A stretch of 64,000 bases of DNA from Burkholderiales bacterium (GTDB lineage Bacteria > Pseudomonadota > Gammaproteobacteria > Burkholderiales > JAEUOS01). Position numbers and translations under genes: made by a program. The DNA lies in assembly GCA_046160545.1 (NCBI GenBank), contig JBJXGS010000193.1:13487-77486 (forward strand), given 5' to 3'. Below are positions 5,879 to 45,568 of this stretch, piece by piece. Numbering within the stretch: position 1 is the first letter of the stretch; the number at the start of each line of letters is the position of its first letter. The notes beneath the pieces are model-generated. The model was given only the letters and a program-made list of their open reading frames with translations. It was not told the origin of the DNA and made no database searches.

Positions 5879-7714
5879 CTACGGTTGCGCCGCTGCTGGC
5901 TTTCCGCCGCCGCCAGTAGCCTGAAATGCCGCTCGTGCAGTACCACGCAGGGCTTGCAGCCGTTCGCGACCGAGCCCAAGCAGAACGTCGCGCTCCTCCC
6001 GGGGATCCGAGAACAGCTCAAATGCCTGTTCGCGCGTGGAGGCGCGGTCGTAGCGCATCTTGATTGCGGTCTCGCCGTCAAAATGGACGACGGCTACCTG
6101 TTGCGGCAGGTTCTGGGAAACATGTTCACTCAGACTCCCGGCAAGCGAGTGTTGCAATGGCCGTCCGTGCCAGGTGACCGGCGCAGGCAGGCCCAGGGCT
6201 GCCAGGACGGTCGGCGCCACATCGACCTGGCGCGCAAAGCGGGTAGCTCCCACGGTGGGTCGAGTCTCATGTATCCACAGCGGCACGTGCAACTCGGCCT
6301 GGTCAAGCGACACCATGTGGCCGATCACCCCCGCGCGCTCGCCCAGCGACTCGCCATGATCGGAGGTGATGATCACGATCGCGTCCTCCAGGTAGCCGCC
6401 AAGCTTGAGCGAGTCCCACAGCATCGCGAGGGTCGCGTCCGCCTGCAGGACGCCGTTGTGATAGTTGTTGCGATAGCGTTCCGTGAACGACGCATCCTCG
6501 CCGCCGCGATAGTCCGGCCGAAAGCGCCGGTAGGACTCAGCCCGGCGCCCAAGCGCGTGGGTGGATACCATCCCGATCATGAGGAATACCGGCCTGCCCT
6601 GCCAGGGGCCGAGGCGTCGCAATCCTTCCGGCAGGACGGCATCGTCCAGTGCAAGTCGACTGCCCAGGTCCTTGCCATCGACGTAGAAGTCGGCCGGCTC
6701 GTAATACCGGCGCGTCTCCATGAAGTCCTGGTGATTGCTCGCCAGCACGTAGGCCGTCGAGTAGCCGATGTTCTTGAGGGTCTTGGGCAGGGAACAGAAT
6801 TCCGGGTGCTGGAGCCGCGCCGGCCGCGACTGCAGCAGCGCCGCGAGCCCGCAGACCGTGCTTGTGCAAGCGGCCATGGCCAGGTCGGCCTGGACAAACC
6901 TTCCCTCGCGCACCATGCGTGTCATGAAGGGCATGTTCTCCCGCGCGCCGGCTCCGCCGTAGGGCTGCGTCACGTCGGCACGCAAGGCATCGACATAGAC
7001 CAGAATCACATTCGGGCGTCGCCGCGGCGTACTCGGCACCGCGCACGCCGCGCGGTCGAGTTGCCGTTCCTGAGGTTGCGGGCCGCGCGCGGCCGCTGTG
7101 CCGCGCACTGACACGTTGTGCCAACTGGAGGCGAAGGGCTCGCGGCCATCAACTTGCCAAGCCAGCGGAATCACCATGGAAACGCCCGGATATACCGCGC
7201 CTGCACAGGCAAGCAGGCTCGCCAGCGGTACACCTGACCGCGAGCGCGGGCGCCGGGCGACGTACGCGCCGACCTGCGCCAGGCACCAGCCGGCCACCGC
7301 TCCGATGAAAAGCAGCAGGAGGGCCAGCCCCAAGGAGACCGAAGCCAGCATCGCTCGCGTCATCGGCAATGTATCGATGAGCACCGGCAGATCGGCCAAG
7401 TGGGCTGAGACCAGGTTACGTGTCGGGAACTCGCCCAGAAACACCAGGCAGAAAAATAGTGCGATGTAGGCGATGAGCAGTCCCGTCGCTGCGATGAAGC
7501 CGAGCGCGAAAAGGACTGCCGTGCGTGCGCGCCGGCGCTCTGATCCCATACCGGCAAGTGCCGCAAATCCGCCCAGCGCGATCATCCCGGCCGCAAGCAG
7601 CGCTAAATGCGGTCCGATCGAGGACGCGGCGGCCTCGGAGAGCGAGTCGACGTGGCGCCCGACCGCAATCCCGGCCAGCAGCACCCCGAGTGCAACAAGC
7701 AGCGGGAAACCCAT
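5879..7714 (-). CDS. Membrane-anchored sulfatase/alkaline-phosphatase-superfamily protein (LTA-synthase/phosphoethanolamine-transferase-like architecture)
   Basis: 611 aa. The N-terminus has multiple TM helices. The C-terminal domain carries ILVYVDALRAD and SDHGESLGE metal-site motifs. Confidence 0.8.
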   Translation of the reverse strand: MGFPLLVALGVLLAGIAVGRHVDSLSEAAASSIGPHLALLAAGMIALGGFAALAGMGSERRRARTAVLFALGFIAATGLLIAYIALFFCLVFLGEFPTRNLVSAHLADLPVLIDTLPMTRAMLASVSLGLALLLLFIGAVAGWCLAQVGAYVARRPRSRSGVPLASLLACAGAVYPGVSMVIPLAWQVDGREPFASSWHNVSVRGTAAARGPQPQERQLDRAACAVPSTPRRRPNVILVYVDALRADVTQPYGGAGARENMPFMTRMVREGRFVQADLAMAACTSTVCGLAALLQSRPARLQHPEFCSLPKTLKNIGYSTAYVLASNHQDFMETRRYYEPADFYVDGKDLGSRLALDDAVLPEGLRRLGPWQGRPVFLMIGMVSTHALGRRAESYRRFRPDYRGGEDASFTERYRNNYHNGVLQADATLAMLWDSLKLGGYLEDAIVIITSDHGESLGERAGVIGHMVSLDQAELHVPLWIHETRPTVGATRFARQVDVAPTVLAALGLPAPVTWHGRPLQHSLAGSLSEHVSQNLPQQVAVVHFDGETAIKMRYDRASTREQAFELFSDPREERDVLLGLGRERLQALRGTARAAFQATGGGGKPAAAQP

Positions 7715-9155: not shown

Positions 9156-9908
9156 CTAGAGGTAGAGGGACCGGCCACCGTCGACATTGACGATCTGGCC
9201 GGTCACGAAACTCGCGCCGGCGATGAGGAAATGGACGGTCTCGGCGATGGCTTCCGCTCCGCCTTCGCGTGCCAGCGGCGTGGACGCAAGAATGCGTGCC
9301 TGTTCCTGCGGCGCGATGCTGCTGCCAGGTGCATCAGGCCATGCGATCGGGCCGGGAGCGACGCCGTTGACCCGCACCTCGGGGGCCAGGTCGAGCGCGA
9401 GCGCACGCGTGAGCCCGGCCAGCCCGGCCTTGGCGGCGCAGTAGGCAACGTGGTCCCGCAGGGGCCGTTCGGTGTGGATGTCAATCAGATTCACGATTGC
9501 GCCGCGCCGGCGCCTGAGTTCGGAAGCGGCAGCGCGGCAGAGGAAAAGCGGTGCCTTGAGGTTGCTCGAAGCCAGGTCGTCCCACTGAATTTCGGTAAGG
9601 GTCTCAAGCGGTGTCGGATAAAAGCTCGACGCGTTGTTGACGAGAGCGTCGAGCCGGCCGAAATTTGCGATCGCCGCGTCGATGAGGCCGGGCAGCGCAG
9701 CGGTGTCGGAAAGATCCTGTCGCACTACCGCCGCCGATCCGTCACGCGCCGCGTTGAGCAAGGTGGCCAGCGAACGGGCCTCTGCCAGGTGTTCGCGGCA
9801 ATGGACAACGATGCTGGCGCCGTCTGCATGCAGACGGCGCGCGATCGCCGCTCCGACGCGTCGCGCGGCGCCGGTCACGAGAATGCATTTGCCGGCGAGC
9901 GCGGACAT
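9156..9908 (-). CDS. Short-chain dehydrogenase, pteridine/dihydromonapterin reductase-like (FolM/PTR1 type)
   Basis: 250 aa with TGAARRVG Rossmann motif, NNAS, and the YCAAK catalytic motif. Confidence 0.75.
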
Positions 9909-9977
9909 GTACGCAGAAGATTGGCGACAACGAAAGGCTGCCGATTTTACGTTAGTCTACCGAGCGCCCCCTGCACG

Positions 9978-11132
9978 ATGAACGACCTCCCCGACCCTGG
10001 CACGGACGCGCTGATCCACAGCGCGCGCGTCACCGACCACATTCGTCGCGCGATCGCCAATGCCGGCGGCTGGATCTCGTTCGAACGCTACATGGACCTG
10101 GCACTCCATGCACCCGGGCTCGGCTACTACGCCGCCGGCGCCGCGAAGTTCGGGGCGGCGGGTGACTTCGTCACCGCACCGGAAATTTCGTCGCTGTTCG
10201 GCCAGACGCTGGCTGTGCAGGTCGGCGAGGTGCTGGCCGCCAGCGGTGCGGCCGTGCTCGAGTTCGGCGCCGGAAGTGGACGCCTCGCGGCCGACCTCCT
10301 ATGCGCCTTGGGCCGGAGCTGCGGGGAGTACTTGATCCTCGAGACCTCGCCGGACCTGCGCGAGCGCCAGGCGCGCACCCTGTCGGCAGCTGGCCATGCC
10401 GGCCGCGTGCGCTGGCTGGATGTTCCGCCCACCCAATTTGCCGGCTGCCTCATCGCCAACGAAGTGCTCGATGCAATGCCGGTGCAAGTGGTCGCGCAGC
10501 GCGGCAGGCGTTGGGTCGAGCGAGGCGTGCGCGCTGATGGCAGGGCGGGCTTCGCCTGGGCCGACGGACCGGACGTTGAAGGGGTGGCGGCGATTCCGGA
10601 CGCGGCCGATTTTCCCGGGGGCTACCAGACCGAGATCAACCGCAGAGCGCCGGCCTGGGTCGATGCCGTGGGACGCACCCTCACCCACGGTGCGGCGCTG
10701 GTCGTCGACTACGGCTTCGCCGCGGCTGAGTACTACCACCCACAGCGTTCCGGCGGCACCCTCATGTGTCACACACGCCACCGCGCGCACACCGATCCCT
10801 TCTTCATGCCGGGCCTGACCGACATCACCGCCCATCTGGACTTCAGCTCACTGGCCGGTGCGGCGCGTGGCGCCGGGCTCGAGGTGCTGGGCTATGCGAC
10901 GCAGGCCAATTTCCTCATCAATTGCGGCATCACCGACCTCCTCGCACAGACCCCGGCCAGCGATGCGGTGACCTACCTGCCGCTGGCCAACCAGGCCAAC
11001 CGCCTGCTCTCGCCGGCCGAAATGGGTGAGCTCTTCAAGGTGATCGCATTCGGGCGCGGAATCGAAGATGCTCTCACCGGCTTTACCCGGGGCGACCGCC
11101 GCCACACCTTGTCGCCATGCGCACCCGTCTGA
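9978..11132 (+). CDS. MidA/NDUFAF7-family class I SAM-dependent methyltransferase (DUF185)
   Basis: The real start is MNDLPDPGTDALIHSAR at 9978. It contains FERYMDLALHAPGLGYYAAG and DFVTAPEIS. The upstream 333 codons of track ORF 8979..11132 are antisense to ttcA and the SDR gene. Confidence 0.85.
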   Translation: MNDLPDPGTDALIHSARVTDHIRRAIANAGGWISFERYMDLALHAPGLGYYAAGAAKFGAAGDFVTAPEISSLFGQTLAVQVGEVLAASGAAVLEFGAGSGRLAADLLCALGRSCGEYLILETSPDLRERQARTLSAAGHAGRVRWLDVPPTQFAGCLIANEVLDAMPVQVVAQRGRRWVERGVRADGRAGFAWADGPDVEGVAAIPDAADFPGGYQTEINRRAPAWVDAVGRTLTHGAALVVDYGFAAAEYYHPQRSGGTLMCHTRHRAHTDPFFMPGLTDITAHLDFSSLAGAARGAGLEVLGYATQANFLINCGITDLLAQTPASDAVTYLPLANQANRLLSPAEMGELFKVIAFGRGIEDALTGFTRGDRRHTLSPCAPV

Positions 11133-11812
11133 TCGCTGTAGTCATGGCCGCGATCGCCCCGGCTGCCTGGGCGGCCGAGCCTGCACCGTCGAAGGCAGGC
11201 ACACAGGCGTCAGCCACCGACCTGGTCGCGGCCGCGCGCGCACGCTGGGAGCAAAGCCCGCACGGCGAGATGCTCCGGCGCATCATTCCGCCCAACCTCA
11301 CGCCTGCGCAGCTCCCCGAGCCACGCTCGCGCGGCGCACGCCTCACCGTTGCCTACTGCGTGCAATGCCACAACCTCGCACCCCCGGCCATGCACGATGC
11401 CGACAAATGGCCTGGCATCGTCGAACGCATGCTGCCGCGCATGCAGGGGCGCGGCAACCGCGGCGAGCTCATGAACGAACTCATGGCCGGAGTGCGCGCG
11501 CCCAGCGACGAGGAAACCCAAGTCATCGTCGCCTACCTGCGCCGCCACGCGCAAAAGCGCGTCGAGGCCAACACCCTGCCCGAAGCCAACACCAGCCGCG
11601 CCTGGGTCAGCTTCACGCATGCCTGCGCGCAATGCCACACCCTGCCCGACCCGCGGCGCCACACGCGCGAAGCCTGGCCGGGCGTGGTCGCGCGCATGGA
11701 GCGCAATATGGAGTGGATGAACCGCGTCGTCGGCTCGCAGCGGGATCCACGCGAACCCCGCTATGACAGCGCCGAGATCGTCGCCTACCTGAGGCGGCAC
11801 GCCAGACCATGA
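11117..11812 (+). CDS. Periplasmic di-haem c-type cytochrome-like protein (internally duplicated module)
   Basis: It has a signal peptide and two CxxCH motifs (CVQCH, CAQCH). Each is followed by W-P-G-[IV]-V-x-R-M and ends in IVAYLRRHA. It overlaps the midA-like stop by 16 nt and the phoD start by 4 nt. Confidence 0.75.
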   Translation: MRTRLIAVVMAAIAPAAWAAEPAPSKAGTQASATDLVAAARARWEQSPHGEMLRRIIPPNLTPAQLPEPRSRGARLTVAYCVQCHNLAPPAMHDADKWPGIVERMLPRMQGRGNRGELMNELMAGVRAPSDEETQVIVAYLRRHAQKRVEANTLPEANTSRAWVSFTHACAQCHTLPDPRRHTREAWPGVVARMERNMEWMNRVVGSQRDPREPRYDSAEIVAYLRRHARP

Positions 11813-13410
11813 GCGCCGTGGTATCGCAGCGCCGGCGCGTCCTCATCGCCCTGACCGCAGCCGCCGCAGCGAGCGGGATGGCGGCATGCGCCGTGGGCAA
11901 CAGCGTTCGCGGCACGCGCTTTCCGTTTTCACCGTTCGGCCTCGGTGTCGCCAGCGGCTCCCCTGCGGCCGACGGCTTCGTGCTCTGGACCCGCTTGGTC
12001 GCCCCTGGGAATACGCCTTTGGCCGGCGTCGTCGGGCCGAATGGCCCCGTCGAAGTCGCCTGGGAAGTTGCCGATGACCAGGCGTTTGCGCGCATCGTCC
12101 GGCGCGGCGTTGCCATCGCCCCGGCCGGACTTGCGCACGCGGTCCATGTGCAAGTACACGGCCTCGCGCCCGATCGCCCGTACTTCTACCGCTTTCTCGC
12201 CGGCGACGCGGTGAGCCCGGTCGGTCGCTCGCGCACACTGCCGTCGCCGGACGCAGCCGTCGCACGCCTGCGCCTGGCCTACGCCTCCTGCCAGCGCTTC
12301 GAACACGGCTATTTCAGCGCCTATCGCCACATGCGCGACGACGATCCGGACTGCGTGCTGTTTCTGGGCGACTACATCTACGAGTACCCCGGCGCACAGA
12401 ACGCGGTACGCAACGTCGACGGCGCCTGGACCATGACCCTGGACGACTACCGGCGCCGTTACGCCCTCTACAAGGCCGACCCGGATCTCAAGGCGATGCA
12501 CGCCGCCGCGCCGTGGATCGTCACCTGGGACGACCACGAGGTGCAGAACGACTACGCCGGGACACGCGAAGGCAACGCCGGGCCGCCGACGGCTGACTTC
12601 CTCGCGCGCCGCGCTGCGGCCTACCAGGCCTGGTTCGAGCACCTCCCCGTCCCGCAAGCCGCGCTGACGCGCGCGCTCGCCAGCCTCATCCAGGGCGCCG
12701 AAACCCGCATTTACGGAAATTTCCGCGTCGGCCAACTGGCCGATATCGCGCTACTGGACACGCGCCAGTACCGCGCCCCGCAGGCCTGCTCGACCAGCGG
12801 CCGCACCCTAACCGCGACCGCGGAGCCGGCTGCCTGCGCCGAGTGGAACGACCCGGCGCGCAGTCTTCTCGGAACCGAGCAGGAGCGCTGGCTCGAAGGC
12901 GTCTACGCCCGCTCGAAAACCCGCTGGAACCTGCTCGCCCAGCAATGCATGTTCGGTGAACGCAACCTCTCCCCAGGCCGCGCGCGCACCCTGCTACGCG
13001 ACCCCTGGGACGGCTACCCGGCCGCGCGGCGCCGCGTGACCGACGCGTGGCTGCGACATCGCGTCGCCAACCCGGTGGTCTTTGGCGGCGACGCGCACGA
13101 GAACTGGGTCGGCCAGGTCAAGGCCGACTACGCCGACCCACGTAGTGCTGACGTGGGCGTCGAGTTTTGCGGCACCAGCGTCAGCTCGCGCGAATTCGAC
13201 CGCCGCCAGACCGCCGCGCAACTATCGGCGAACCCGCACTTCATCTTTGCCGACTCGGCGCAGCGTGGCTACGGGCTGGCCGAGTTCACACCGGGTCGGC
13301 TAGACGTGAAATTGCGCGTTGTCGATGACGTAACGCGGCGCGATGCCGGTGTCTCGACAATGGCGGACTTTGAGGTCGACGCTGGGCGCCCTCGTGTAGC
13401 GCGGCGATAG
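11809..13410 (+). CDS. phoD: Tat-exported PhoD-family alkaline phosphatase/phosphodiesterase
   Basis: 533 aa. It has the twin-arginine signal SQRRRVLIALTAAAAASG and the motifs GDYIYEY and WDDHEVQNDY. Confidence 0.9.
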   Translation: MSAVVSQRRRVLIALTAAAAASGMAACAVGNSVRGTRFPFSPFGLGVASGSPAADGFVLWTRLVAPGNTPLAGVVGPNGPVEVAWEVADDQAFARIVRRGVAIAPAGLAHAVHVQVHGLAPDRPYFYRFLAGDAVSPVGRSRTLPSPDAAVARLRLAYASCQRFEHGYFSAYRHMRDDDPDCVLFLGDYIYEYPGAQNAVRNVDGAWTMTLDDYRRRYALYKADPDLKAMHAAAPWIVTWDDHEVQNDYAGTREGNAGPPTADFLARRAAAYQAWFEHLPVPQAALTRALASLIQGAETRIYGNFRVGQLADIALLDTRQYRAPQACSTSGRTLTATAEPAACAEWNDPARSLLGTEQERWLEGVYARSKTRWNLLAQQCMFGERNLSPGRARTLLRDPWDGYPAARRRVTDAWLRHRVANPVVFGGDAHENWVGQVKADYADPRSADVGVEFCGTSVSSREFDRRQTAAQLSANPHFIFADSAQRGYGLAEFTPGRLDVKLRVVDDVTRRDAGVSTMADFEVDAGRPRVARR

Positions 13411-22782: not shown

Positions 22783-23673
22783 GTGGCTGAGGCGTCGGCG
22801 ACGGTAGCGGTCCTGTTCGCCGACATCGCCGGCAGCACGCGCCTGTACGAGGTGCTCGGCGACGAGCGCGCCAAGGCGCTCATCGACGAAGCCATTGCCG
22901 AGTTGCGCGCCATCACGGAGCGCCATGGCGGCCGAGTGGTGAAGACAATCGGCGACGAGGTCATGTGCGTGTTTCCCAGCCCCGAGCGCGGTTTCATCGC
23001 GGCGACCGACATGCAGTTGCGCATCGATCGCCTGCCCACCGAATCCAACACCAAGCGCAAGATCCGTGTCGGCTTTCATGCCGGACAGGTGATCGAGCAG
23101 GACGGCGACGTCTTCGGCGACACCGTCAACACGGCCGCGCGCATGGCCGGCCTGGCCAAGGGATTGCAGATCATCACCACCCGCGCGACGGTGGACCTGC
23201 TGCCCCCGGCACTGGCGGCTGGCACGCGTGACATCGCTGCGCTTGCCGTCAAGGGCAAGGCCGACGATCTGGCCGTCTGCGAAGTCATCTGGCAGGAAGG
23301 CGACGACCTGACCATGACGGCGCCGTCGGTAGTCATCGCAGCGCCGGAAGCAGTCCTGCAGCTGATCCATGGCGGGAGCACCCTGATCCTGAATACGGCC
23401 AAGCCAGCTGCCAGCCTGGGCCGCGATGCGGGCAGCGATGTGGTTATCGCTGACCCGAAAGCGTCGCGCAACCACGCCCGCATCGAACGCCGGCGCGACA
23501 AGTTCTTCCTGGCGGATCAGAGCACCAACGGCACCTTCGTCACCTTCGAGGGCGAAGCGGAAATGTCGCTGCGCCGGGAAGAGGTGATGCTGCGTGGCTC
23601 AGGGAGCATCGTGTTCGGCCACAGCGCGACTGAGTCGGCAGCCGAAGTGGTCGAATTCTCGCTACGCGGCTAA
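22783..23673 (+). CDS. Class III adenylate cyclase catalytic domain fused to a C-terminal FHA domain
   Basis: 296 aa with a GTG start. Cyclase motifs are VLFADIAGST, VKTIGDEVM and GDVFGDTVNTAARM. FHA motifs are LGRDAGSDVVI, SRNHARI and STNGTFV. Confidence 0.85.
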   Translation: MAEASATVAVLFADIAGSTRLYEVLGDERAKALIDEAIAELRAITERHGGRVVKTIGDEVMCVFPSPERGFIAATDMQLRIDRLPTESNTKRKIRVGFHAGQVIEQDGDVFGDTVNTAARMAGLAKGLQIITTRATVDLLPPALAAGTRDIAALAVKGKADDLAVCEVIWQEGDDLTMTAPSVVIAAPEAVLQLIHGGSTLILNTAKPAASLGRDAGSDVVIADPKASRNHARIERRRDKFFLADQSTNGTFVTFEGEAEMSLRREEVMLRGSGSIVFGHSATESAAEVVEFSLRG

Positions 23674-23695
23674 GAGCTGCGCTACGTCCGGTCCC

Positions 23696-23723
23696 TCGCC
23701 CTGCGAACGCAGCCGCAGGGCGA
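23696..23723. terminator. 10-bp-stem hairpin between the convergent cyclase-FHA and kinase genes
   Basis: TCGCCCTGCG-aacgcagc-CGCAGGGCGA. There is no clear U-tract on either strand. Confidence 0.35.
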
Positions 23724-23735
23724 TCCCCGAAATGG

Positions 23736-26165
23736 CTAGGCGACGCGGCGCACAGCCTTGGTACGCCCGTCCGGCGCGCTCAACAGCCCGGCCGGTGGCG
23801 CGGACTCGAGCTTGCCGCGCACTGCCGGATCGGCACAGGCCGACACGAAGCTGAGTTTGACCTCGGCGCCGGTCGAACCGCCGGGCGCAAAGCAGCTCTG
23901 GCCGAGCTTGGCATTGAGCGGCTTGGCCACCCCGTCGGCGATCAGGTCACCCGCATTGCCTTCGGGCAGCTCAAGGGCGAACTTGCCAGGCCCGCTGGTC
24001 CGGGCATCGAGCACGACGCGCAGGCCGCGCAGCTCGCGCAGCAGCGCAGGCGTGGCGCCATCTGGCAGGCCGTCAATGGCAAGGGCGACCTTTTGCGTGC
24101 CGAAATTGAAGCGCGCCAGAAAGAACTTCTTGGAGAATTCGTCGCCCACCAGCCGGCCGATGTCGGCCAGCGCCGTGTCCTCGTTGGGCCAAGATGTGTT
24201 CTTGGGCATCGCCGTGTTCGAGTAGATCTCCTCGCCGGTCGCCTTGTCGATTGCCTTGACGGTCCATGACGTGAGAGCGGTCTTGTTGATGGTGAGCCCG
24301 GAGGCAGCCAGCTTCATCGACAGGAGCTTGACCTTGACTTCACCGACGATGTGGAAATCAGCGCCCTTGGCGTTCGGGCCGGTCTTGGTCTCACCCTCGT
24401 TGGACCAGACACGAAAGCCGAAGGAGCGGATGCGCTCCTTGATCATGTTCTCGGCCATCTGCGATCGCGCCGGCGGAATCGGCTCGGTCGATTCGGCGTT
24501 GCGGATCAGCATCTCCACCGAGATCCTGGGATCGCCGTTGTTGCGGATGAATTCGATGCGTTCCTTCTCACTCATCTGGTTCAGGGATTTCTGCACGTCG
24601 CGCACCTTGACCGAGGCGCGCGTGACCATCTGCACAAGACCGTCCTTGCCGGTCTGCGGTGCGTCCTCCGAGAGGGTGCTCTTGATGAATTCACTCGAGC
24701 GGACAAGCATTTTTTGCGCGACCCAGTCGTAATTCTTGTCCAGCGAATCCGCAGCGACATACAGGCCCAACGCCTTCTCGACCAGTTGACGCCGCGCATC
24801 GGCGCGCGCCTCGGCCCCGGCGGCAGCCGTGTCACCATTGAAGCGCGCCGGATCGGCTAACCCCAAGGCGCTGATGACGACCGTGCCGGGCTCTGCCGGA
24901 GGTTCGGCAGGAGCCGGAGGCGGAGCAGCGGGTGGCGCGGCGGTCGGCGCCGCGCCCGGTGCCGCCGCGGCAACAGGCCCTGCAGCCGGGGCGGATGCGG
25001 TGGCGCTTGCCGGGCCCTCGGCCTTGCGCTGAGAGGCGAAAAACGCTCCGACTCCGACGGCAAGAACGAGCGCCGCGACGATCGCGAATAGCGGCGTCCG
25101 TGACCGCGGCGGCGCCGCGACCGGCATGCCTGACGGTGACTGCGCGGCCGGGCGTCGCGCCGTCGGCGCAGCGCCTGATGCCAGGGTAGCGTCGGCCGCT
25201 GTCGCAGCGGCGGCGCTATTGGCGACGGTCGCATCCAGTTCTGACGACGCGGGCTTCGCCTCGATGACCGCGCGAATAGCGTCGGAGAACTCGCGTGCGC
25301 TCTGGTAGCGCTCGTCGGGATTCTTGGCCATCGCCTTGTTGACCACCGCATCCCAGGCAGGCGGCAGGGTAGCGTTTATCGTCGAAGGTGGCAGCGGCGC
25401 CTCCTTCAGGACCTTGTGCATGATGGTCGTGACCGCGCCGGTGAAGGGCTTTTCCCCGGTCAGGAACTGGTACAGGATCACGCCGCAGGAAAAGAGGTCG
25501 CTGCGTCCGTCGACGGTCTGGCCCAGAAACTGTTCGGGCGACATGTAGGACGGCGTGCCGAGCACCGTGCCTGCCTGGGTCAACTCCGAGGTCTCGATAC
25601 GCGCGATGCCGAAGTCGGCCACCTTGACTGCGCTGCCGGCCTCCAGAAGGATCACATTGGCGGGCTTCATGTCGCGGTGGGTGACGCCGTGCGCGTGGGC
25701 GTGGCCCAGCGCATCGAGCAGTTCGCCCATGATGCGGCCGATGTCCTTGACCGCAAAGCGGCGGTTCTCGTCGAAATATTCCTTGAGTTCGCGCCCCTTG
25801 ATGAACTCCATCGCGATGAAAGCGACGCGCGCCGCGCCCGTCGGGGCATCGACAATGGTGGCGTCGACATCGATGACGGTTGCATCCGCATCCGCTGGCG
25901 CACCCGCGCCCCCGCCATCATCCTCGCCGTACTCGTAGATGGCAACGATGTTCGGGTGGTTGAGCCGCCCGGCTGCCTGCGCCTCGCGCTTGAAGCGCGC
26001 CAGCATCTCGCCCATCTGCGCGGCTTCCACCTGGTCAGCGCGAATGGTCTTGATGGCCACCGTACGCTCGATGACGGGGTCGAAGCCCTCGTAGACGACG
26101 CCCATCGCACCGCGACCGAGCTCGCGACGGATCAGGTACTTGCCGAGTTTGCTGATTGCTGCCAT
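23736..26165 (-). CDS. Membrane-spanning Hanks-type Ser/Thr protein kinase with a large periplasmic C-terminal region
   Basis: 809 aa. Kinase motifs are GRGAMGVVYEG, VAIKTI, HRDMKPANVIL, DFGIA and GTPSYMSPEQ. A TM helix lies around aa 358-378 (LFAIVAALVLAVGVGAFFAS), followed by an Ala/Pro linker and about 430 aa of extracytoplasmic sequence. Confidence 0.9.
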   Translation of the reverse strand: MAAISKLGKYLIRRELGRGAMGVVYEGFDPVIERTVAIKTIRADQVEAAQMGEMLARFKREAQAAGRLNHPNIVAIYEYGEDDGGGAGAPADADATVIDVDATIVDAPTGAARVAFIAMEFIKGRELKEYFDENRRFAVKDIGRIMGELLDALGHAHAHGVTHRDMKPANVILLEAGSAVKVADFGIARIETSELTQAGTVLGTPSYMSPEQFLGQTVDGRSDLFSCGVILYQFLTGEKPFTGAVTTIMHKVLKEAPLPPSTINATLPPAWDAVVNKAMAKNPDERYQSAREFSDAIRAVIEAKPASSELDATVANSAAAATAADATLASGAAPTARRPAAQSPSGMPVAAPPRSRTPLFAIVAALVLAVGVGAFFASQRKAEGPASATASAPAAGPVAAAAPGAAPTAAPPAAPPPAPAEPPAEPGTVVISALGLADPARFNGDTAAAGAEARADARRQLVEKALGLYVAADSLDKNYDWVAQKMLVRSSEFIKSTLSEDAPQTGKDGLVQMVTRASVKVRDVQKSLNQMSEKERIEFIRNNGDPRISVEMLIRNAESTEPIPPARSQMAENMIKERIRSFGFRVWSNEGETKTGPNAKGADFHIVGEVKVKLLSMKLAASGLTINKTALTSWTVKAIDKATGEEIYSNTAMPKNTSWPNEDTALADIGRLVGDEFSKKFFLARFNFGTQKVALAIDGLPDGATPALLRELRGLRVVLDARTSGPGKFALELPEGNAGDLIADGVAKPLNAKLGQSCFAPGGSTGAEVKLSFVSACADPAVRGKLESAPPAGLLSAPDGRTKAVRRVA

Positions 26166-26231
26166 GACGTGCGCCGCGCATGGGCGCGGCCGGTCACGAC
26201 CTCACGTGAACCAGCCGCCCGGAGCGCGCCC

Positions 26232-27032
26232 TTATTTGTACTTGGAGTCGATTTCCCAGACGGCGGTCTGCACCAGGCGCTGCACCATGGTGTCCAGCCC
26301 AACCCCGCCTTTGGCGCCGTCGGACACGCCCATGACTGAGGTCCTGGTCTGGCCTACCTCCATCTTGAGTTCCTGGTAGCCCTGCGCGACCTGCTCGGTG
26401 GTGTTGGCGTTCATGATCTTGTAGCGCATGCCGACCAGCCACACCCCGGTCGCCTCGCTGGTCTGCACGTTGGAGACGACATGGCCGGCGACGGATCCGC
26501 CCAGACCGAACAGCCCGCCGAGTGCGCCGATCGCGCGGCCGTCAAAGCCCTTCTTGTTCTCTGCGATCTGCTCGGCCTTGATGATATCGAACTTGATGAC
26601 CCACTCGGTGGTCTTGAGCTTTCCCATCTGCATGGTCTTGCGCGCAGCGTTGGGGTCGCCCAGGTTGTAGGCCAGCGAGATCTCGTTCAGCAACGGCCCC
26701 AGGTTGGAACGCTCCAGAACCGAGAAATTGGCCTGTGAGAGCTCCAGTTCGGCGAAGTCGGCGATGTTGTTGGGGCCGACCTTTTGGGTGAAGCTCGCGT
26801 TGTTGCTCTTGACCTCGCCTGGAATGACCACCAGCGCCGGGCCCTTCTTGGCGCGGTTGGCGTACTCGATGGGCTTGTAGGCAGCCTGGTCGGCAGCGGC
26901 GTTGGCCGCCTGCGAGGTGCTGCTTCCCGCGGTGGGCGACGGGTTGCCGAAGGTCGGCTGGGCCAGCGCGGTCGATGCTGCGATAAGCGCGGCGAATCCG
27001 ACGGCGAATGCGGGGAGGCAGGTGCGATGCAT
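26232..27032 (-). CDS. Secreted CsgG-family-like protein (no lipobox)
   Basis: The ATG at 27032 is preceded by AAGGAG. It has the signal peptide MHRTCLPAFAVGFAALIAASTALA. The blocks ALVVIPGEVKS..ADFAELELSQANFSVLERSNLGPLLNEISLA and WLVGMRYKIMNANTTEQV align by eye to the CsgG core. Confidence 0.65.
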   Translation of the reverse strand: MHRTCLPAFAVGFAALIAASTALAQPTFGNPSPTAGSSTSQAANAAADQAAYKPIEYANRAKKGPALVVIPGEVKSNNASFTQKVGPNNIADFAELELSQANFSVLERSNLGPLLNEISLAYNLGDPNAARKTMQMGKLKTTEWVIKFDIIKAEQIAENKKGFDGRAIGALGGLFGLGGSVAGHVVSNVQTSEATGVWLVGMRYKIMNANTTEQVAQGYQELKMEVGQTRTSVMGVSDGAKGGVGLDTMVQRLVQTAVWEIDSKYK

Positions 27033-27057
27033 GATGTGGCTCCTTGGAAAGCGGGAA

Positions 27058-27780
27058 TTACTTCTTGCGGCGTGGCGCCGGCGGTGGTTCAGGCTGGTTG
27101 CAGTAGTCGCTGTAAAGGCGTGCGACGGCCTCGTCGGCCTGTTCATTGATGAGGGTCAGCGCCATGCCGGATGCATCCGCACCGGCGTAGCTCTGCGAGC
27201 GGGTCTGGGTCTCGGAAATGCGCTTGCCGTCAGCGCCGGTCAGGACAAACTGCATGCCGACGACGACCTGGTTGACCTTCAACACCGGATTGACCATGGC
27301 GCTCGAGGTAATCAGGCCGCGCAGGGTGTAGCTGGCCGCGAGGCGCCTGGACGCCGACAGTGCGGCATCGGGATTGTTCTTGAAGTAGGCATCGATCTCC
27401 GCCTGCGCGATCTGCTTCTTGATCTCGTCGGCGGTGAATGTGGCCAGGCCGAGCTTTCTCAAGCGCTGGTTGACGGCCTCGAAATGGGGGTTGAATGCGG
27501 CCTGGCTGGCGCTGACCACGCCATTCCTCTCTTCGCCGATCAGGACCATGATCTTGCGGCTCTTGATGCGCTCGCGACAGGGCGTGGACAGGAGGGCACC
27601 CACGCGGGCAGCGCGCTCGGCTTCTTCCTTGTCGGCAGTGTTTTCCTGATTGGAGAACTTGAAGCCCTGTGCCAGTGCCGACGGAGCGCCGCTCACCGCG
27701 CATACCGCCAGCGCGGCGATCAGGCCGCGCACGCGGCTGGCGACACCTGCGCGGGTTGGAGCAGCCAGGATGGTATGCAT
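27058..27780 (-). CDS. Secreted protein of unknown function with an LpoB/CsgG-N-like alpha/beta pattern
   Basis: It has the signal peptide ...LIAALAVCAVSGAPSALA. The core KIMVLIGEE...YTLRGLITSS...VVVGMQFVLTGADGKRI resembles that pattern. It is the first gene of the minus-strand operon with the CsgG-like gene and the kinase. The start could be 27780 or 27798. Confidence 0.55.
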   Translation of the reverse strand: MHTILAAPTRAGVASRVRGLIAALAVCAVSGAPSALAQGFKFSNQENTADKEEAERAARVGALLSTPCRERIKSRKIMVLIGEERNGVVSASQAAFNPHFEAVNQRLRKLGLATFTADEIKKQIAQAEIDAYFKNNPDAALSASRRLAASYTLRGLITSSAMVNPVLKVNQVVVGMQFVLTGADGKRISETQTRSQSYAGADASGMALTLINEQADEAVARLYSDYCNQPEPPPAPRRKK

Positions 27781-27876
27781 AGAACCAGATTGTCCCATGT
27801 CCGCAACGCGAATAGAAAGCCATTAGGCCTTTGGTATGAGAGACTCCGGTGTGCGCATGTGCGCTAAGTCACACCG

Positions 27877-29217
27877 ATGTCAACTTCCATACCACCTGGC
27901 GGCAGCGCGGCCCCTGGCCCCGCCCTGCCCGAAGGCGCCGCCGACCTCAAGTCGCTGATCCTGGCTGACGTCCAGGCGCGGCGCGCGCGCGACCTGGCCC
28001 GCGAGCGTATTGAGCGCAGCCTTGCCGAACAGGCCGACGCCGGCGAAAAACTGCGGCGCCAGGAAGACGCCCTGGCCAACACGCGCGCGCTGGTGGTGCA
28101 GACCGCGACCGCCGCCGATCACGCCGAACGCGATCTGGAGGACGCGACCGCGCGGCTGACGCGTGTCAAGGCGGCGCTGGCACGCCAGGTCGCGGCGGCG
28201 CGCAGCCTGGCCTCGGAAGCCGCCGCTGCCTGCGAGGCCGAGCGCGCGCTGGCCGGTCAATACACGCAGGACCTCGCGCGCGAGCGGGATGCGCGTGAGC
28301 ATTTGGACGCGCTGCTCGGCATGGCGCGGCGCGAGCGCGATGCGCTTGAGCAGGACATGGCGACCCTGCGCCAGGCCGACGCCGATGCGCGTGCCAAACA
28401 CGAAGAACTGCGCGCCGCGGCGCGCGCCCTCAAGGACGAACTCGCGGCAATGCCCCAGGCCAACCCTGGCGCGGCACTGGCTGATTTGCGCGCCCGGCTG
28501 GCCGCGGACCGCGCCACCGTGGTGCGGGAGGCTGAAGCCTGGCGCGAACAACGCCTTGCCCTGGCTCGCGAAGGAGCCGCCGAAACGGAATTGCGGGCGC
28601 GCCTGGTAGCGGCGAAAAGCGAGCGCGACAGTCTCGCCACCGACCTGCGTGTTGTAGAGGCCGCCGCCACGGCACTGGCAAGCGACCTCGACGCCAACCG
28701 CAACGCCGCCGCCGCCCTGGCCGTCGAAATCAATCGCCAGGTCACGGCCCGCGCCACGCAAACCGCGCGCGCAACCGCCCTCGGTGTCGCCCTGGCGCGA
28801 CTCGCCCTGCGCACTGACCAGACCACGACGCAGCTGGCGGCAAGGCGGGCCGAGCACGAGGAACTGCAGGCGCGTGTACGCGAACTGCGCTTGCAGAACG
28901 CCAATCTGGTCGCTGATTCAGCCCGCCTGGCTGCCACGAACCGTCATGAGAAGCGTCAAGCCGAGGCTGCAGCACGTAGTGCGCCACCAACCGACGACGC
29001 AAGCGACGCAGGTCTCGTACCGAGCGCGCAAGCGGCAAACGAATCCCCACCGACCGACGCGGGCCCTTCGCCGTCGCCCCGCGCCGAGGAATGGCCGCAG
29101 GGCCCGGTCGCATGGCCGAGCCCGCAGCCGCGCAAGCGCGCACGCGGCTGGCTCCTCGGCATCGTCTTTGCCGCAGCCGCGGCAGCCATCTACCTGGTGC
29201 CGCGCTACTTGCCCTGA
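27877..29217 (+). CDS. Ala/Arg/Glu/Leu-rich coiled-coil protein with a C-terminal TM anchor
   Basis: 446 aa of long heptad-like low-complexity helix. It has a Pro/Ser/Asp-rich spacer and then WLLGIVFAAAAAAIYLVPRYLP at the extreme C-terminus. It is divergent from the kinase operon across a 78-96-bp spacer. Confidence 0.6.
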   Translation: MSTSIPPGGSAAPGPALPEGAADLKSLILADVQARRARDLARERIERSLAEQADAGEKLRRQEDALANTRALVVQTATAADHAERDLEDATARLTRVKAALARQVAAARSLASEAAAACEAERALAGQYTQDLARERDAREHLDALLGMARRERDALEQDMATLRQADADARAKHEELRAAARALKDELAAMPQANPGAALADLRARLAADRATVVREAEAWREQRLALAREGAAETELRARLVAAKSERDSLATDLRVVEAAATALASDLDANRNAAAALAVEINRQVTARATQTARATALGVALARLALRTDQTTTQLAARRAEHEELQARVRELRLQNANLVADSARLAATNRHEKRQAEAAARSAPPTDDASDAGLVPSAQAANESPPTDAGPSPSPRAEEWPQGPVAWPSPQPRKRARGWLLGIVFAAAAAAIYLVPRYLP

Positions 29218-41142: not shown

Positions 41143-42114
41143 ATGAATCGCTTTTCGGCAAGCATCTGCGCGGCCTTGATCGCCGCCGTGGCCCTGTGCG
41201 CGACGGCGCAAGCCCAAACCTATCCGCAGCAACCGATCCGCCTGATCGTAGCCTTCGGTCCGGGCAGTGGTGCCGACGCCATGGCGCGTGTGATCGCCGA
41301 GCGCCTCGCGTTGCAGCTCAAGACCCCCGTGACGGTCGAGAACCGCGAGGGCGCCGGCGGGGTGATCGGCGCATCCGCGGTTGCCAAGGCGCCGGCCGAC
41401 GGCTACACCCTGCACTTCGGGGTCACGACGATGACAGTCACCCCGCACCTGCAGGCGGTCCCGGCGTTCGACCCGGTGCGCGATTTCGTGCCCATCGTCA
41501 AGGTGGCCGAACTGGCGCTCCTGATGATCGCCGGCAACGACGCGCCCTTCAAGTCGCTCAAGGAGTTGATCGCCTATGCGAAAAAGAATCCGGGCAAGCT
41601 CAACTACGCCACCTCCGGCAAGGGCTCGCCCAGCCACCTGGGTGTGGAGATGATCAGGAAGGCCACCGGCATCGATGTGCGCGACGTGCCCTATAAAAAC
41701 ATCGGGCAGGCGACCACCGATGTGATCGGCGGGCAGGTGTCGTTCTACTTTCCCGGCATCACGGGAGCCGCGCCGCAGGTCAGGGCCGGCAAGGCCCGCG
41801 GCCTGGCGGTGGGGTCGGTCAAGCGTTCGGCGCTGGCACCCGAGGTGCCGACGGTCGCCGAAGAGACCGGGATCGCGGGTCTCGAGGTCATCACCTGGTA
41901 CGGGCTGCTAGGCCCCGCGGGCCTGCCCCGCGAGATCGCCAGCCGGCTGCAGGCCGAGACCTTCAAGGCGCTCGAAGTGCAGGAGGTGCGCGAGCGCATC
42001 GCGCGCACCGGCGCTGAGGTCGTGTTGGCGACCGGCGAGGAATTTGCCGCGCAGATCCGCAGCGACAGCGCGCGCTACGAAAAGCTGGTCAGGGAGCTGG
42101 GCTTGCGGGAATAA
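41143..42114 (+). CDS. Bug-family / TctC tripartite tricarboxylate transporter substrate-binding protein
   Basis: 323 aa. It has a signal peptide, and the motifs YPQQPIRLIVAFGPGSGADAMAR and NYATSGKGSPSHL. Confidence 0.9.
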   Translation: MNRFSASICAALIAAVALCATAQAQTYPQQPIRLIVAFGPGSGADAMARVIAERLALQLKTPVTVENREGAGGVIGASAVAKAPADGYTLHFGVTTMTVTPHLQAVPAFDPVRDFVPIVKVAELALLMIAGNDAPFKSLKELIAYAKKNPGKLNYATSGKGSPSHLGVEMIRKATGIDVRDVPYKNIGQATTDVIGGQVSFYFPGITGAAPQVRAGKARGLAVGSVKRSALAPEVPTVAEETGIAGLEVITWYGLLGPAGLPREIASRLQAETFKALEVQEVRERIARTGAEVVLATGEEFAAQIRSDSARYEKLVRELGLRE

Positions 42115-42179
42115 AGGGGCTGGCCGCCTCACACAGAGGTCGGCTCCTCCCAGTTGCAGTAGCAGCAGCCTGCGACCGA

Positions 42180-42437
42180 CTAGGCGACACTCTTGCCCGC
42201 CAGCCCGATGACAAAGGCGGCCCAAAGCCCGACGACCAGCAGGAACCCGGCCCCGAAGGCGGCGAATCGTTGCATCACGCGGTTGTAGGTGCAGTGAATG
42301 AAGCTGTGGACCGCGCGCAGAGCGACGTACGTCCACGCACCAACGATTAGCCAGTCCGGCGCATGGTGGGCACCGATGGCGGTTGCGACCAAAGCGTAGA
42401 ACAGGACCGGGGTCTCGAAGAGGTTCCTGAAGTTAGT
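42180..42437 (-). pseudogene. 5'-truncated MAPEG-family membrane protein gene
   Basis: Track ORF 42180..42392. My upstream extension reads ...TNFRNLFETPVLFYALVATAIG..., then loses similarity and hits a stop at 42474-42476. The N-terminal third to half expected for a MAPEG protein of about 130 aa is missing. Confidence 0.55.
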
Positions 42438-42574
42438 TGTGCGGCTTGGTTGTCTGCAGAGAGGCGAGCCGCATTAACGCCTCTGCAACGGCAAGTAGTC
42501 AGAGATACCAGAGATCCCTGCGATGCCAATGGCAATAGCTACCAGCCCGACCGCGCAAGCGTTACTCAGAAATC

Positions 42575-42812
42575 AAAGGCGTGCTGCGATTTCCATCGGC
42601 AATGTCCCGGGAAGTGTTGAACAGAGACGTTGAAGGTGGCGTCCGAAAACCCGTGTTTGCGGCACAGCGCGGCTACGGCATGTCGGCCCCGACCTGTTCG
42701 ATAAACCCGATGAACTGTTCTTCGCTTTATCCGCTCTTCCGTCTGTCCGTGATTCTCCAGGATTGACGGACTTTAAGAACTTGAGGCGGTACGGCTGTGG
42801 GGGAGCAGGTCA
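42575..42812 (-). mobile_element. IS3-family insertion sequence remnant (terminal repeat plus degenerate 5' end of orfA)
   Basis: The minus strand starts TGACCTGCTCCCCCACAG at 42812. OrfA HTH-like segments SEEQFIGFIEQVGADMP and VAALCRKHGFSDATF lie in two frames 1 nt apart, with an in-frame stop just before SEEQ. No transposase body follows, and the left boundary is approximate. Confidence 0.6.
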
Positions 42813-42878
42813 GAACGCCTTCGCTCGCGGCATGTCCTGAACATAGATTTCAAACCAACCCACCGGATTGCTTTTCAT
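42810..42878 (-). pseudogene. VOC/glyoxalase-family gene truncated after 22 codons by the IS end
   Basis: GAGGAGAG RBS followed by MKSNPVGWFEIYVQDMPRAKAF, a typical VOC N-terminus. The TGA stop is supplied by the first bases of the IS terminal repeat. Confidence 0.55.
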
Positions 42879-42949
42879 GGTGTCTCTCCTCTCGTGGATC
42901 ACAACTTCGATCAGGTCCTTGCCATGGGCGGCGAGTCCATATACGCGAG

Positions 42950-43558
42950 TCAGCCAGCACTTTCCTTGCCCTTGACGGCGATGATGACCAAATGATGAAG
43001 CGGGTACTGGTCTCGCTCCATCAGGACCGGCACGCACCCCTCGCTCTTGACCAACTGAATCAACGCCGTCTCGCACAGCGAGGAGTAATGAAACTCGTGT
43101 CCGTACATCGTACCCACCACTTCAGACTCGATGCCGCCTGCCGAAAACAGAATCACACCACCTTCGCTCAGACGGCGGCACAATTTTTCGATCACTGGAA
43201 CATGCAAATCACGCGGCAAATGGAAAATGCTATCCCAGGCTAGGATCAGATCGAACCGTAGCGGGGATACCCATTCCGTGATGTCGTCGTGAATGAACTC
43301 AACCGTCGGGTGCTTGGCCTTCGCAATCGCAAGCATGGCCGCCGAGACATCGATTCCTGCAACGCTGAAACCGGCGGCGATCAGTTTCTCGATCATCGGA
43401 CCGCCGGAGCCGCAACCCACATCGAGCGCCCTGTTCCCCGAACCACACAGCGCAATGGCACGCTCTAGGAACGGGACGCCGTAAAGCGAGCCCCGTCGGC
43501 TCTCATCCCAGAGAGTTGCGATAGCGTCGTATTGGCGTCCGGTATCGCGAGGGTGCAT
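42950..43558 (-). CDS. Class I SAM-dependent methyltransferase
   Basis: 202 aa. Contains ALDVGCGSGGPMIEKL (motif I) and DLILAWDSIFHL. Its GC content is lower than in flanking genes. Confidence 0.8.
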   Translation of the reverse strand: MHPRDTGRQYDAIATLWDESRRGSLYGVPFLERAIALCGSGNRALDVGCGSGGPMIEKLIAAGFSVAGIDVSAAMLAIAKAKHPTVEFIHDDITEWVSPLRFDLILAWDSIFHLPRDLHVPVIEKLCRRLSEGGVILFSAGGIESEVVGTMYGHEFHYSSLCETALIQLVKSEGCVPVLMERDQYPLHHLVIIAVKGKESAG

Positions 43559-43670
43559 GACAGTGCTTTCGACTATTGCCTTCAGACAGACGCTTCAGGG
43601 CGCTGGCTGCACGGCAAAGCGAAGTGGCCAGGCTGCCGCCCTTGCTCGACACCTGCCCTGACGACGTCGC

Positions 43671-44423
43671 TCATCCGAGCTTCTTAAGCGCGTTGAAGAT
43701 GATGTATGCGCCCAAGACCAATATCGCAGCAAAGAACACTGTACGGAATCTCTGCTCGGAAAGCTTCCTGCGAACGAGTTGTCCGACGACCATTCCCGCG
43801 AGCGCCGGCAGCACAGCCATCGTCGACAGAATGCCATGCTGGATTGTGATGAAGTTCGCCTGCTGCAAACCGGCCGCCAACGCAACGGTGGAGACAGTAA
43901 ACAGCATCCCCATGGCCTGGATGAGCATATCCCTCGGCAAGCCGATGGCCTGCAGGAACATGACGCCCGGCACAACAAACGAGCCGGTCATCCCCGTCAG
44001 CACACCGTTGGCAGACCCAATCAGGGGACCTGCCCAGAACTCGTACCGCGCCGGAATGGTGAGCCGTACTCCCGCCAGGTTCACTACGGAGTAGGTAACC
44101 AGCAGCACACCGAGTAGCGCAGTGAGCAGGGACGGGTTCAGTCGCGTCAGCGCTGCCACGCCAATCCAGACTGTGACCGTTGCCATTACCAGAAACGGCC
44201 AGAGGCGGTACAGAATGGCCTTTGCATTTCCTCCGACGACGGACTGCCAAAGATTCGTGACGAAGGAGGGCAACAGAAGGAGCGCCATCGCGCTTGGCAG
44301 GTCTAGTGCGACCGTAAGCAGTGCCAGACTTACCGTGGGCAGGCCGAGGCCGATTACCCCCTTTACGGCACCAGCGAGAAGGAAGGTGCCGACTACCACG
44401 ACTACGGTCGTCGGTTCAAACAC
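43671..44423 (-). CDS. TauE/SafE (TSUP) family anion/sulfite exporter
   Basis: The GTG at 44423 gives about 250 aa and about 8 TM helices. Contains AGAVKGVIGLGLPTVSLALL and GPLIGSANGVLTGMTG. Confidence 0.8.
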   Translation of the reverse strand: MFEPTTVVVVVGTFLLAGAVKGVIGLGLPTVSLALLTVALDLPSAMALLLLPSFVTNLWQSVVGGNAKAILYRLWPFLVMATVTVWIGVAALTRLNPSLLTALLGVLLVTYSVVNLAGVRLTIPARYEFWAGPLIGSANGVLTGMTGSFVVPGVMFLQAIGLPRDMLIQAMGMLFTVSTVALAAGLQQANFITIQHGILSTMAVLPALAGMVVGQLVRRKLSEQRFRTVFFAAILVLGAYIIFNALKKLG

Positions 44424-44511
44424 GTTTTCGCCTTTCAGCGCGTGCGGGTCGGACAAAGTGGATGCTACGTGGCCTGATGTAGGCAGGTCCAATTGAGCTG
44501 CGGGTAGGGTC

Positions 44512-45201: not shown

Positions 45202-45225
45202 GGTGAGTGCGGTTGACGCCTAACC

Positions 45226-45251
45226 AAAAAACGGCGGCCGGAAACCGCCGT
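45226..45251 (-). terminator. Intrinsic terminator on the minus strand with no annotated gene upstream of it
   Basis: The minus strand reads ACGGCGG-TTTCCGG-CCGCCGT followed by TTTTT. It lies just upstream of the HNH gene start. Confidence 0.5.
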
Positions 45252-45568
45252 CGATCGCGATACGCGCTTCGCGTATTCGATGACGGGTCGTGAAAGACCA
45301 CTGATTTGTTTCGGCTTTATCGAACATCGTCTAGATTGGGCGACCCAAAAGACTGAAAAAACGACACCGCGCGCCCTTTCCTGCTTGCCGCGTCCTGCCG
45401 GCCGCGGTCTCCCGGCCCGTTCCCTTGCGAAATCATAGGCGCCGGGATCTTACCTACGGCGACGCTTGAGTCATGGGTAGAAAGCATACGCCGATCGCTT
45501 GGGCAATTCTGCCCGTAGCACGCTGGCGGTTCATTGCGAGGCTTCGAGTCCTGCTCTAGACTTGCCAC

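Follow-up and report, generated by a model that had tools for sequence, protein, structure and literature searches.

A conserved four-gene locus of Burkholderiales combines a Ser/Thr kinase bearing a periplasmic ectodomain, two exported proteins and a cyclase-FHA protein

INTRODUCTION

What might a bacterium be sensing, and to what end, with a Ser/Thr kinase that reaches into the periplasm and is encoded beside two exported proteins and a nucleotide cyclase carrying an FHA domain? The question is raised by positions 22783-29217 of a stretch of 64 000 nt from a Burkholderiales bacterium (GenBank assembly GCA_046160545.1, contig JBJXGS010000193.1, positions 13 487 to 77 486), the whole of which is called the window here. 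An earlier reading, made from the letters of the window without database searches (the sequence-only reading), had marked five adjacent genes as a coherent, undescribed envelope-signalling set: the kinase, two secreted proteins of CsgG/LpoB fold (P3 and P4 below), an FHA-adenylate cyclase and a coiled-coil protein. All five open reading frames (ORFs) were found where it had placed them, and the coordinates bear out exactly its intergenic distances of 25, 66 and 62 nt; its observation was confirmed, and its interpretation is partly supported. Our analysis identifies P4, P3, the kinase and the convergent cyclase-FHA gene as a conserved unit of four genes, not five. We propose, with a probability of about 0.6, that these form a transmembrane module in which periplasmic sensing leads to kinase autophosphorylation, FHA docking and synthesis of cyclic AMP (cAMP).

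Apart from PASTA domains and peptidoglycan, little is known of what bacterial Hanks kinases respond to, and links between Ser/Thr phosphorylation and cyclic nucleotides are poorly defined. The module is compact and widespread (at least 447 species, almost all Burkholderiales), encodes sensor, transducer and output enzyme together, and has an output that is easily measured. Evolution's own domain swap (kinase and FHA against TIR and TPR-S) points to the signalling partners, and three protein families without Pfam models, those of the ectodomain, P3 and P4, are defined. Literature searches on FHA-cyclase-kinase combinations, TPR-S, TIR-periplasm-cyclase combinations and Cya1/FHA found no published account of the module, which agrees with its having been called undescribed, as far as absence of evidence within the literature searched can.

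The features of the four-gene unit, in window coordinates, are as follows.

22783-23673, + strand: cyclase-FHA gene, 296 aa; class III (IIIc-like) adenylate cyclase extended C-terminally by FHA; predicted to be the module's output enzyme
22789-23259, + strand: cyclase domain, aa ~3-159 (Pfam Guanylate_cyc PF00211, 3e-21)
23371-23616, + strand: FHA domain, aa ~197-278 (Pfam FHA PF00498, 1.6e-12)
23736-26165, - strand: Hanks kinase gene, 809 aa
25302-26132, - strand: Hanks Ser/Thr kinase catalytic domain, aa 12-288 (Pfam Pkinase, 1e-44)
25032-25094, - strand: single transmembrane helix after RSR, aa ~358-378, as read from the sequence
23739-24887, - strand: periplasmic ectodomain, aa 427-809; three subdomains, one invariant Cys pair
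26232-27032, - strand: P3, exported protein, 266 aa
27058-27780, - strand: P4, exported protein, 240 aa; first gene of the operon

RESULTS

Conservation of the four-gene unit

An alignment of the ectodomain was scanned against one genome per species, and at least 447 genomes were found to hold a relative. The carriers are almost all Burkholderiales, including Rhodoferax, Ramlibacter and Candidatus Aalborgicola, and are mostly metagenome-assembled genomes. The locus statistics given here refer to the best 80 species-level loci, among which the order P4 > P3 > kinase-ectodomain < cyclase-FHA is nearly universal. Of the 67 loci with enough downstream flank, 62 have a convergent cyclase gene no farther than 600 nt from the end of the kinase gene (median gap ~54 nt), and two more have one farther off, at 1.3 and 4.2 kb. 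P4-P3 stands directly upstream of the kinase in 54 of the 61 loci with enough upstream sequence, and P4 adjoins P3 in every locus examined. Conservation of the P3 sequence is high (75-95%). Neighbours outside the module vary from locus to locus; the window's own flanks (aminotransferase, metF, ahcY, Slt) are common to its closest relatives only (L003-L011 in our numbering of loci).

The fifth gene of the sequence-only reading does not share this pattern.

27877-29217, + strand: coiled-coil ORF, 446 aa, divergent from the operon; Ala/Arg/Glu-rich, with a C-terminal hydrophobic tail

Among all loci examined it was seen only in L003, a 93%-identical relative, and in L006 merely ~240 nt separate P4 from metF. 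Because its sole carrier is a close relative, we place it outside the conserved unit; the idea of a coherent set thus stands for four genes, co-conserved across dozens of species despite changing flanks, and fails for this one. The ORF is taken to be a real gene because its differences from the L003 ortholog are concentrated at third codon positions (159, versus 67 and 54 at the others), a pattern that would put it under purifying selection. Its protein is 76% identical to that of L003, its neighbours 88-96%, and the gene is a lineage-specific insertion between P4 and metF. Searches of Pfam and NCBIfam returned only weak matches to coiled-coil families.

At two loci the kinase and ectodomain were called as separate genes (L087 5790-8140 and L088 5764-8173). 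A split receptor was rejected for L088, where translation shows a frameshift after the kinase domain (a true frameshift or an assembly error), and by inference from L088 it was rejected for L087 also, where the two calls overlap. Such an artefact may lie behind some ectodomain-only proteins (~380-390 aa), many of which come from short contigs.

Kinase and ectodomain

The catalytic domain scores 153 bits against Pkinase PF00069 (cut-off 31.7) and is of Hanks type. The VAIK Lys and the HRD, DFG and SPE motifs are present in the window kinase and are conserved, together with the threonines of the activation loop, in 66 intact orthologs. The best NCBIfam kinase match is a PknB-type model, in the kinase domain only. 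This is not a PASTA kinase of the PknB/Stk1 type: model NF033483 gives 309 bits against a cut-off of 450 and covers aa 8-380 only, and Pfam finds no PASTA domain in the protein. Across the Pfam searches as a whole, short sub-threshold matches to NDUS4 and IF3_N were disregarded. The N-lobe holds a low-complexity insertion rich in Gly, Ala and Asp (aa ~82-112, nt ~25830-25922) that is variable or absent in orthologs.

The ectodomain (~380 aa) has no match in Pfam, NCBIfam or PDB sequences. Its AlphaFold2 model, with a predicted local distance difference test score (pLDDT) of 81 and a predicted TM-score of 0.70, has three alpha/beta subdomains, and the best PDB matches of this model in Foldseek are HpaA (4e-5), pre-pore CsgG (2e-4) and PelC (2.6e-4), with a TM-score on target of 0.56-0.59 for PelC. 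Further matches are PelBC, DUF330, the CadC periplasmic domain and TolB. The LPP20- and CsgG-type patterns that the sequence-only reading had noticed within the kinase ectodomain are thus borne out by structure model and fold search.

Cyclase-FHA protein

Both domains exceed their Pfam cut-offs: PF00211 gives 76 bits (cut-off 21.9), the class III cyclase profile, and PF00498 gives 48 bits (cut-off 20.7). In the cyclase domain, residues D14, K54, D58, D109, N116, R120 and K158 are at least 98% conserved among 68 orthologs. We take their roles from established class III knowledge, so that the set required of an adenylate cyclase is present: two Asp that bind metal, the Lys and Asp that specify the substrate, and an Asn and an Arg for the transition state. 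In the FHA domain R29, S43, H46 and N64 (numbered from aa 186) are likewise at least 98% conserved, as are the GR, SRNH and NGT motifs in 67 orthologs.

The nearest solved cyclases are Ma1120, Rv1900c and Rv1264 (E 5e-15 to 1e-10), mycobacterial class IIIc adenylate cyclases whose metal, substrate and transition-state residues are of the same type. They differ in that their regulatory domains are N-terminal, pH-sensing or of alpha/beta-hydrolase type, whereas that of the window protein is a C-terminal FHA domain; control of the window cyclase by the adjoining receptor kinase is our proposal only.

A natural exchange of receptor head and cyclase partner

In some homologs of the ectodomain the N-terminal head is a TIR domain and not a kinase. 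Their operon reads TIR-ectodomain, P4, P3, and the cyclase of these loci has a TPR-S domain in place of FHA; it is encoded downstream of P3 in L001, and divergently, upstream of the receptor, in L083 and L084. No FHA domain was found in the TIR loci, and neither TIR nor TPR-S in the 80 kinase loci. The identity between TIR-type ectodomains and certain of the kinase type is 76-81%, above the median of 66% among kinase-type ectodomains, and modules of both types share one chromosomal slot (Nth, module, FeS-DHOdh-ATE). Given the common slot and the high ectodomain identity, the sensor half (ectodomain, P3 and P4) was kept while head and cyclase partner were exchanged together. Of all the evidence at hand, this swap speaks most strongly for signalling from the receptor head to the adjacent cyclase by way of the partner domain.

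The TIR-headed variant lies outside the window itself, in loci of the L001 and L083 types. When metagenomes were searched with the TIR head, all matches were unrelated TIR proteins (25-49% identity) that came without the ectodomain, P3, P4 or cyclase. The head may be an NADase, since it retains a Glu that we take to be the Glu of the SxFVxxE motif. In its layout (extracytoplasmic sensor, single transmembrane helix, cytoplasmic TIR) the receptor of L001 and L083 resembles the Toll-like or TIR receptors of animals and plants, from which it differs in that its ectodomain is not based on leucine-rich repeats and its partner is a TPR-S-cyclase rather than a TIR adaptor. In the TPR-S-cyclases (L001 11595-13382; L083 6024-7808) a middle region of ~200 aa between TPR-S and cyclase has no domain assignment.

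The closest kinase-type relative of the TIR variant's ectodomain is that of L033. This locus also has the only PP2C-type phosphatase near any module (4062-4763, ~440 nt upstream of P4).

A wider reading, which we regard as possible though doubtful, is that one periplasmic sensor feeds two cytoplasmic relays of unrelated chemistry, kinase-phosphothreonine-FHA-cyclase and TIR-TPR-S-cyclase, each of which yields a nucleotide second messenger. In the TIR form this would be a Toll-like architecture used for chromosomal housekeeping envelope signalling, not phage defence, and the kinase form the first defined pathway from a Ser/Thr protein kinase to cAMP with a dedicated extracytoplasmic sensor complex.

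Proposed mechanism

P3 and P4 both have signal peptidase I sites, and a pair of invariant cysteines is found in P4 and another in the ectodomain, which places P3 and P4 in the periplasm. There they would join the kinase ectodomain as an extracytoplasmic sensor, as the operon structure and co-conservation suggest, for a cue that is probably related to the envelope or cell wall. Occupancy of the sensor would alter the oligomerisation of the kinase, and the kinase, judging from its intact catalytic motifs, would autophosphorylate on activation-loop threonines and probably at juxtamembrane positions too. The phosphothreonines would recruit the FHA domain of the soluble cyclase, a step suggested by the invariant FHA and cyclase residues and by the joint change of head and partner, and docking would pair two cyclase domains or permit their phosphorylation, so setting the rate of cAMP synthesis. 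The relay from kinase through phosphothreonine to FHA-cyclase, as the sequence-only reading had it, is strongly favoured by the invariance of the catalytic and phosphothreonine-binding residues together with the co-change of head and partner to TIR and TPR-S.

Several points weigh against this mechanism. It starts from observed domain identities, topology, ectodomain fold, co-conservation of four genes and the TIR/TPR-S swap; every protein-protein contact in it, the direction of regulation, the cue and the product in vivo are what we infer. The juxtamembrane linker that would carry the docking Thr is Ala/Pro/Thr-rich, of low complexity and unconserved. In three of the 67 loci, including that of the sole isolate, Ramlibacter sp. 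WS9, the cyclase gene is not within the available flank. The module has no PP2C of its own (L033 alone has one nearby), which leaves the resetting of the signal unexplained, and no cAMP receptor is linked to it. The TIR variant amounts to three distinct loci in two arrangements (L001/L085 and L083) on related contigs, L084 being a second contig of the L083 gene, and may reflect a single evolutionary event. Its TPR-S-cyclases keep both metal Asp and the Arg and have Asn in place of the adenine-specifying Lys54 and Ser in place of the transition-state Asn116; because of these two replacements their product is maybe not cAMP, and the nucleotides of the two variants may differ. Finally, the structure model of P3 is of low confidence (pLDDT 39.7), because the 25-sequence alignment behind it was too uniform.

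The alternative that survives best, though we judge it unlikely, is a different wiring of the same parts: the FHA-cyclase would stand upstream of the kinase, regulating it or serving as its scaffold independently of cAMP, or be one substrate of many, and P3 and P4 would have a task in the envelope to which the kinase is blind. FHA proteins are able to regulate or localise kinases, as FhaA and FhaB of mycobacteria can with their own, and such an arrangement would fit both the unconserved docking region and the three loci in which the cyclase is missing near the kinase. It fits less well with the invariant catalytic residues of the cyclase, from which we conclude that cyclase activity is under selection. 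Where TIR replaces the kinase, moreover, the cyclase is kept and its partner domain is changed, as expected of a downstream output matched to its input and not of a kinase regulator; and P4, P3 and the receptor remain one operon even where gene order is reshuffled.

Exported proteins P3 and P4

P3 has a signal peptidase I site (ALA/QP, the slash marking cleavage), the conserved sequence FGNPSPTAG where the mature protein begins, and an insert resembling a glycine zipper. The sequence-only reading had linked the relay to a CsgG-like outer-membrane channel. In its fullest form this would make P3 a CsgG-type oligomeric channel with P4 as its adaptor, the ectodomain monitoring or gating secretion and cAMP reporting the secretion state. 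CsgG (PF03783) is indeed the only Pfam family that P3 orthologs match consistently (23 of 25, best E 1e-4), and one match in a wider P3 search bears a precomputed PF03783 assignment. All of the ortholog matches fall below the gathering score, however (18.5 bits against 20.8 for the window protein), and they mostly span profile positions 30-100 of 210. The top 22 Foldseek matches of the P3 model are all CsgG, the membrane-bound form included, but the TM-scores are very low and the model, as said, is unreliable.

Lipidation cuts both ways. The P3 family is small (a search of 1.84 billion proteins gave 273 representatives at E<=1e-3), and its distant members are mostly lipoproteins, as a channel would call for. 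The lipobox Cys is absent, by contrast, from 65 of 75 module copies of P3, that of the window included, and non-lipidated CsgG remains soluble and is not known to form the pore. P3 has Gly-rich inserts at about the position of the membrane hairpins in CsgG, but among relatives the insert differs in length and in several distant ones has all but disappeared. In the flanks examined there is no conserved gene for cargo, for a CsgE/F-like protein or for other secretion functions, and near P3 there are no csgE, csgF or curli subunit genes, its neighbours being housekeeping genes that vary among loci. Below the family's gathering score, without a lipobox and with a variable or missing insert, P3 does not bear out the channel; we rate that explanation slightly lower again than the different wiring, and prefer to see in P3 an accessory or sensor subunit in the periplasm.

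Some distant P3 relatives carry LysM, PG_binding_1 or SH3b domains, which hints at a possible peptidoglycan-facing role. Six loci, all from Rhodoferax-like genomes, have a second, lipidated P3 paralog (L030 7657-8556, L072 4202-5101, L076 7884-8765, L081 7025-7834, and in L029 and L035) with a lipobox LAVSGC, FALSAC, GLAGC or FLAGC and an Ala/Pro linker of ~40 aa ahead of FGNPSPTAG. These paralogs, which would also be in keeping with a channel, suggest that the outer membrane can serve as an anchor for assemblies of P3.

P4 has a signal peptidase I site (ALA/QGFKFS) and two invariant cysteines, matches no Pfam or NCBIfam family above threshold and has no sequence relative in the PDB. LpoB (PF13036) appears below threshold in 21 of 25 orthologs (best E 0.0044); the two orthologs with reported scores reach 12.5 and 16.7 bits against a cut-off of 22.3, and the L001 ortholog spans profile positions 8-134 of 147. 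Unlike the lipoprotein LpoB, P4 has no conserved lipoprotein Cys in its signal region.

Searches of PDB sequences with profiles of P3, P4 and the ectodomain gave nothing meaningful, and comparison of the three profiles with one another showed no significant paralogy (probabilities <=20%). The description of P3 and P4 as two secreted proteins of CsgG/LpoB fold is not supported, the material for it being consistent sub-threshold matches and a fold search with a low-confidence model. From their sequences P3 would be a distant relative of CsgG, and P4 of LpoB, at the superfamily level at most.

Two further loci came to notice through distant P3 relatives. In L171 (662-6996) seven same-strand genes beside lspA-ileS, most without family assignment and one weakly LPP20-like, end with a P3-family lipoprotein with a C-terminal PG_binding_1 domain; this may be an ancestral envelope lipoprotein cluster for the P3 family. 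In L169 a 426-aa P3-family protein (6001-7281) is encoded 2.6 kb from a protein of 1307 aa (9865-13281) in which pentapeptide repeats are fused to a class I adenylate cyclase, a second proximity of P3 and cyclase that may be coincidence.

Relation to defence systems

The module could also be imagined as a conflict or anti-phage system, in which a kinase or TIR receptor sensing the periplasm or cell surface triggers a cyclase to make a nucleotide alarm signal; TIR and TPR-S domains are frequent in such systems, and PADLOC models for PD-T4-6 kinases, Pycsar cyclases (PycC 4e-8, aa 8-71) and TIR match individual domains, but these matches are generic, no PADLOC system is matched in all its components, P3, P4 and the TPR-S-cyclase match nothing, no effector gene is linked to the module, a search of plasmids found no ectodomain homolog, and the stable chromosomal slot amid housekeeping genes, inherited across at least 447 species with a P3 conservation unlike that of fast-evolving defence loci, makes this very improbable.

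DISCUSSION

Comparison with known kinase-FHA systems

By its logic the module stands nearest to the kinase-FHA pathways. In the TagQRST-PpkA-Fha1-PppA pathway of the Pseudomonas aeruginosa H1 type VI secretion system (T6SS), a single-pass Hanks kinase has a periplasmic domain, an FHA protein reads its phosphothreonine, and upstream of the kinase act the co-encoded accessory proteins TagQRST, which are periplasmic or associated with the outer membrane. The window locus is alike in having a kinase with a periplasmic domain, co-encoded exported accessory proteins and an FHA partner. It differs in its output, a class III cyclase fused to FHA instead of a T6SS scaffold, and in that no named family of Pfam or NCBIfam takes in P3 or P4 at its threshold. 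The TagH model TIGR03354 gives 34 bits against a cut-off of 120, and the periplasmic fold of PpkA is different from the HpaA-, CsgG- and PelC-like folds of the window ectodomain. In the flanks examined there are no T6SS, csgE, csgF or curli subunit genes, and PP2C occurs only at L033, so that linkage to a T6SS pathway is lacking and the statement that this is neither the PpkA/Fha1 nor the curli arrangement was correct. That no PP2C is nearby also agrees with our result, as none was detected in the 64-kb window with a PstP query of approximate sequence, a result that is accordingly approximate itself.

The mycobacterial pairs PknB/FhaA, PknF/Rv1747, PknH/EmbR and PknG/GarA likewise join a Hanks kinase to an FHA protein that docks on its phosphothreonine, a regulatory logic described in PMC12189002. 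The window system belongs to a Gram-negative host, its ectodomain is periplasmic and has no PASTA repeats, its FHA domain is fused to a cyclase, and its operon encodes two exported accessory proteins.

The third comparison is with the CsgG, PelC, LpoB, TolB-N and HpaA families, to which the ectodomain model (Foldseek E 4e-5 to 4e-3) and the weak P3-CsgG and P4-LpoB matches point. None of the window proteins reaches a family threshold, and a lipid anchor is lacking in P3, in P4 and in the ectodomain, the last of which is held at the inner membrane by the transmembrane helix of the kinase, and the curli, Pel and penicillin-binding-protein partner genes of these families are not linked to the module. 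This suggests a new mode of envelope monitoring in which the ectodomain and, if their sub-threshold matches are a guide, perhaps P3 and P4 as well are built on a CsgG/LpoB/PelC-type fold freed from the outer membrane. The module is Ser/Thr kinase-FHA signalling in a new form, in which the sensor complex is uncharacterised and the output enzyme is a cyclase.

Other features of the window

The kinase and cyclase genes converge on a gap of 62 nt, in which the hairpin reported by the sequence-only reading is present by sequence and by folding.

23696-23723, no strand: G+C-rich inverted repeat with a 10-bp stem and an 8-nt loop

It has no T-run, a terminator scan did not pick up the stem, and the folding z-score of the whole region (-1.4) is not exceptional; the repeat is possibly a bidirectional transcript end.

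The flanks of the module in the window are housekeeping genes, namely an aminotransferase, MTHFS, Slt, metF, ahcY, metK and lipid A acyltransferases. Just 5' of ahcY, within the metK-ahcY-metF cluster that adjoins the module, lies an S-adenosylhomocysteine riboswitch (Rfam RF01057, 31630-31705, - strand; 52 bits, gathering score 37), a known element where one would expect it. The G+C content falls to 0.59-0.61 at 42001-46000, compared with ~0.65-0.70 elsewhere in the window, and this stretch could be a foreign segment.

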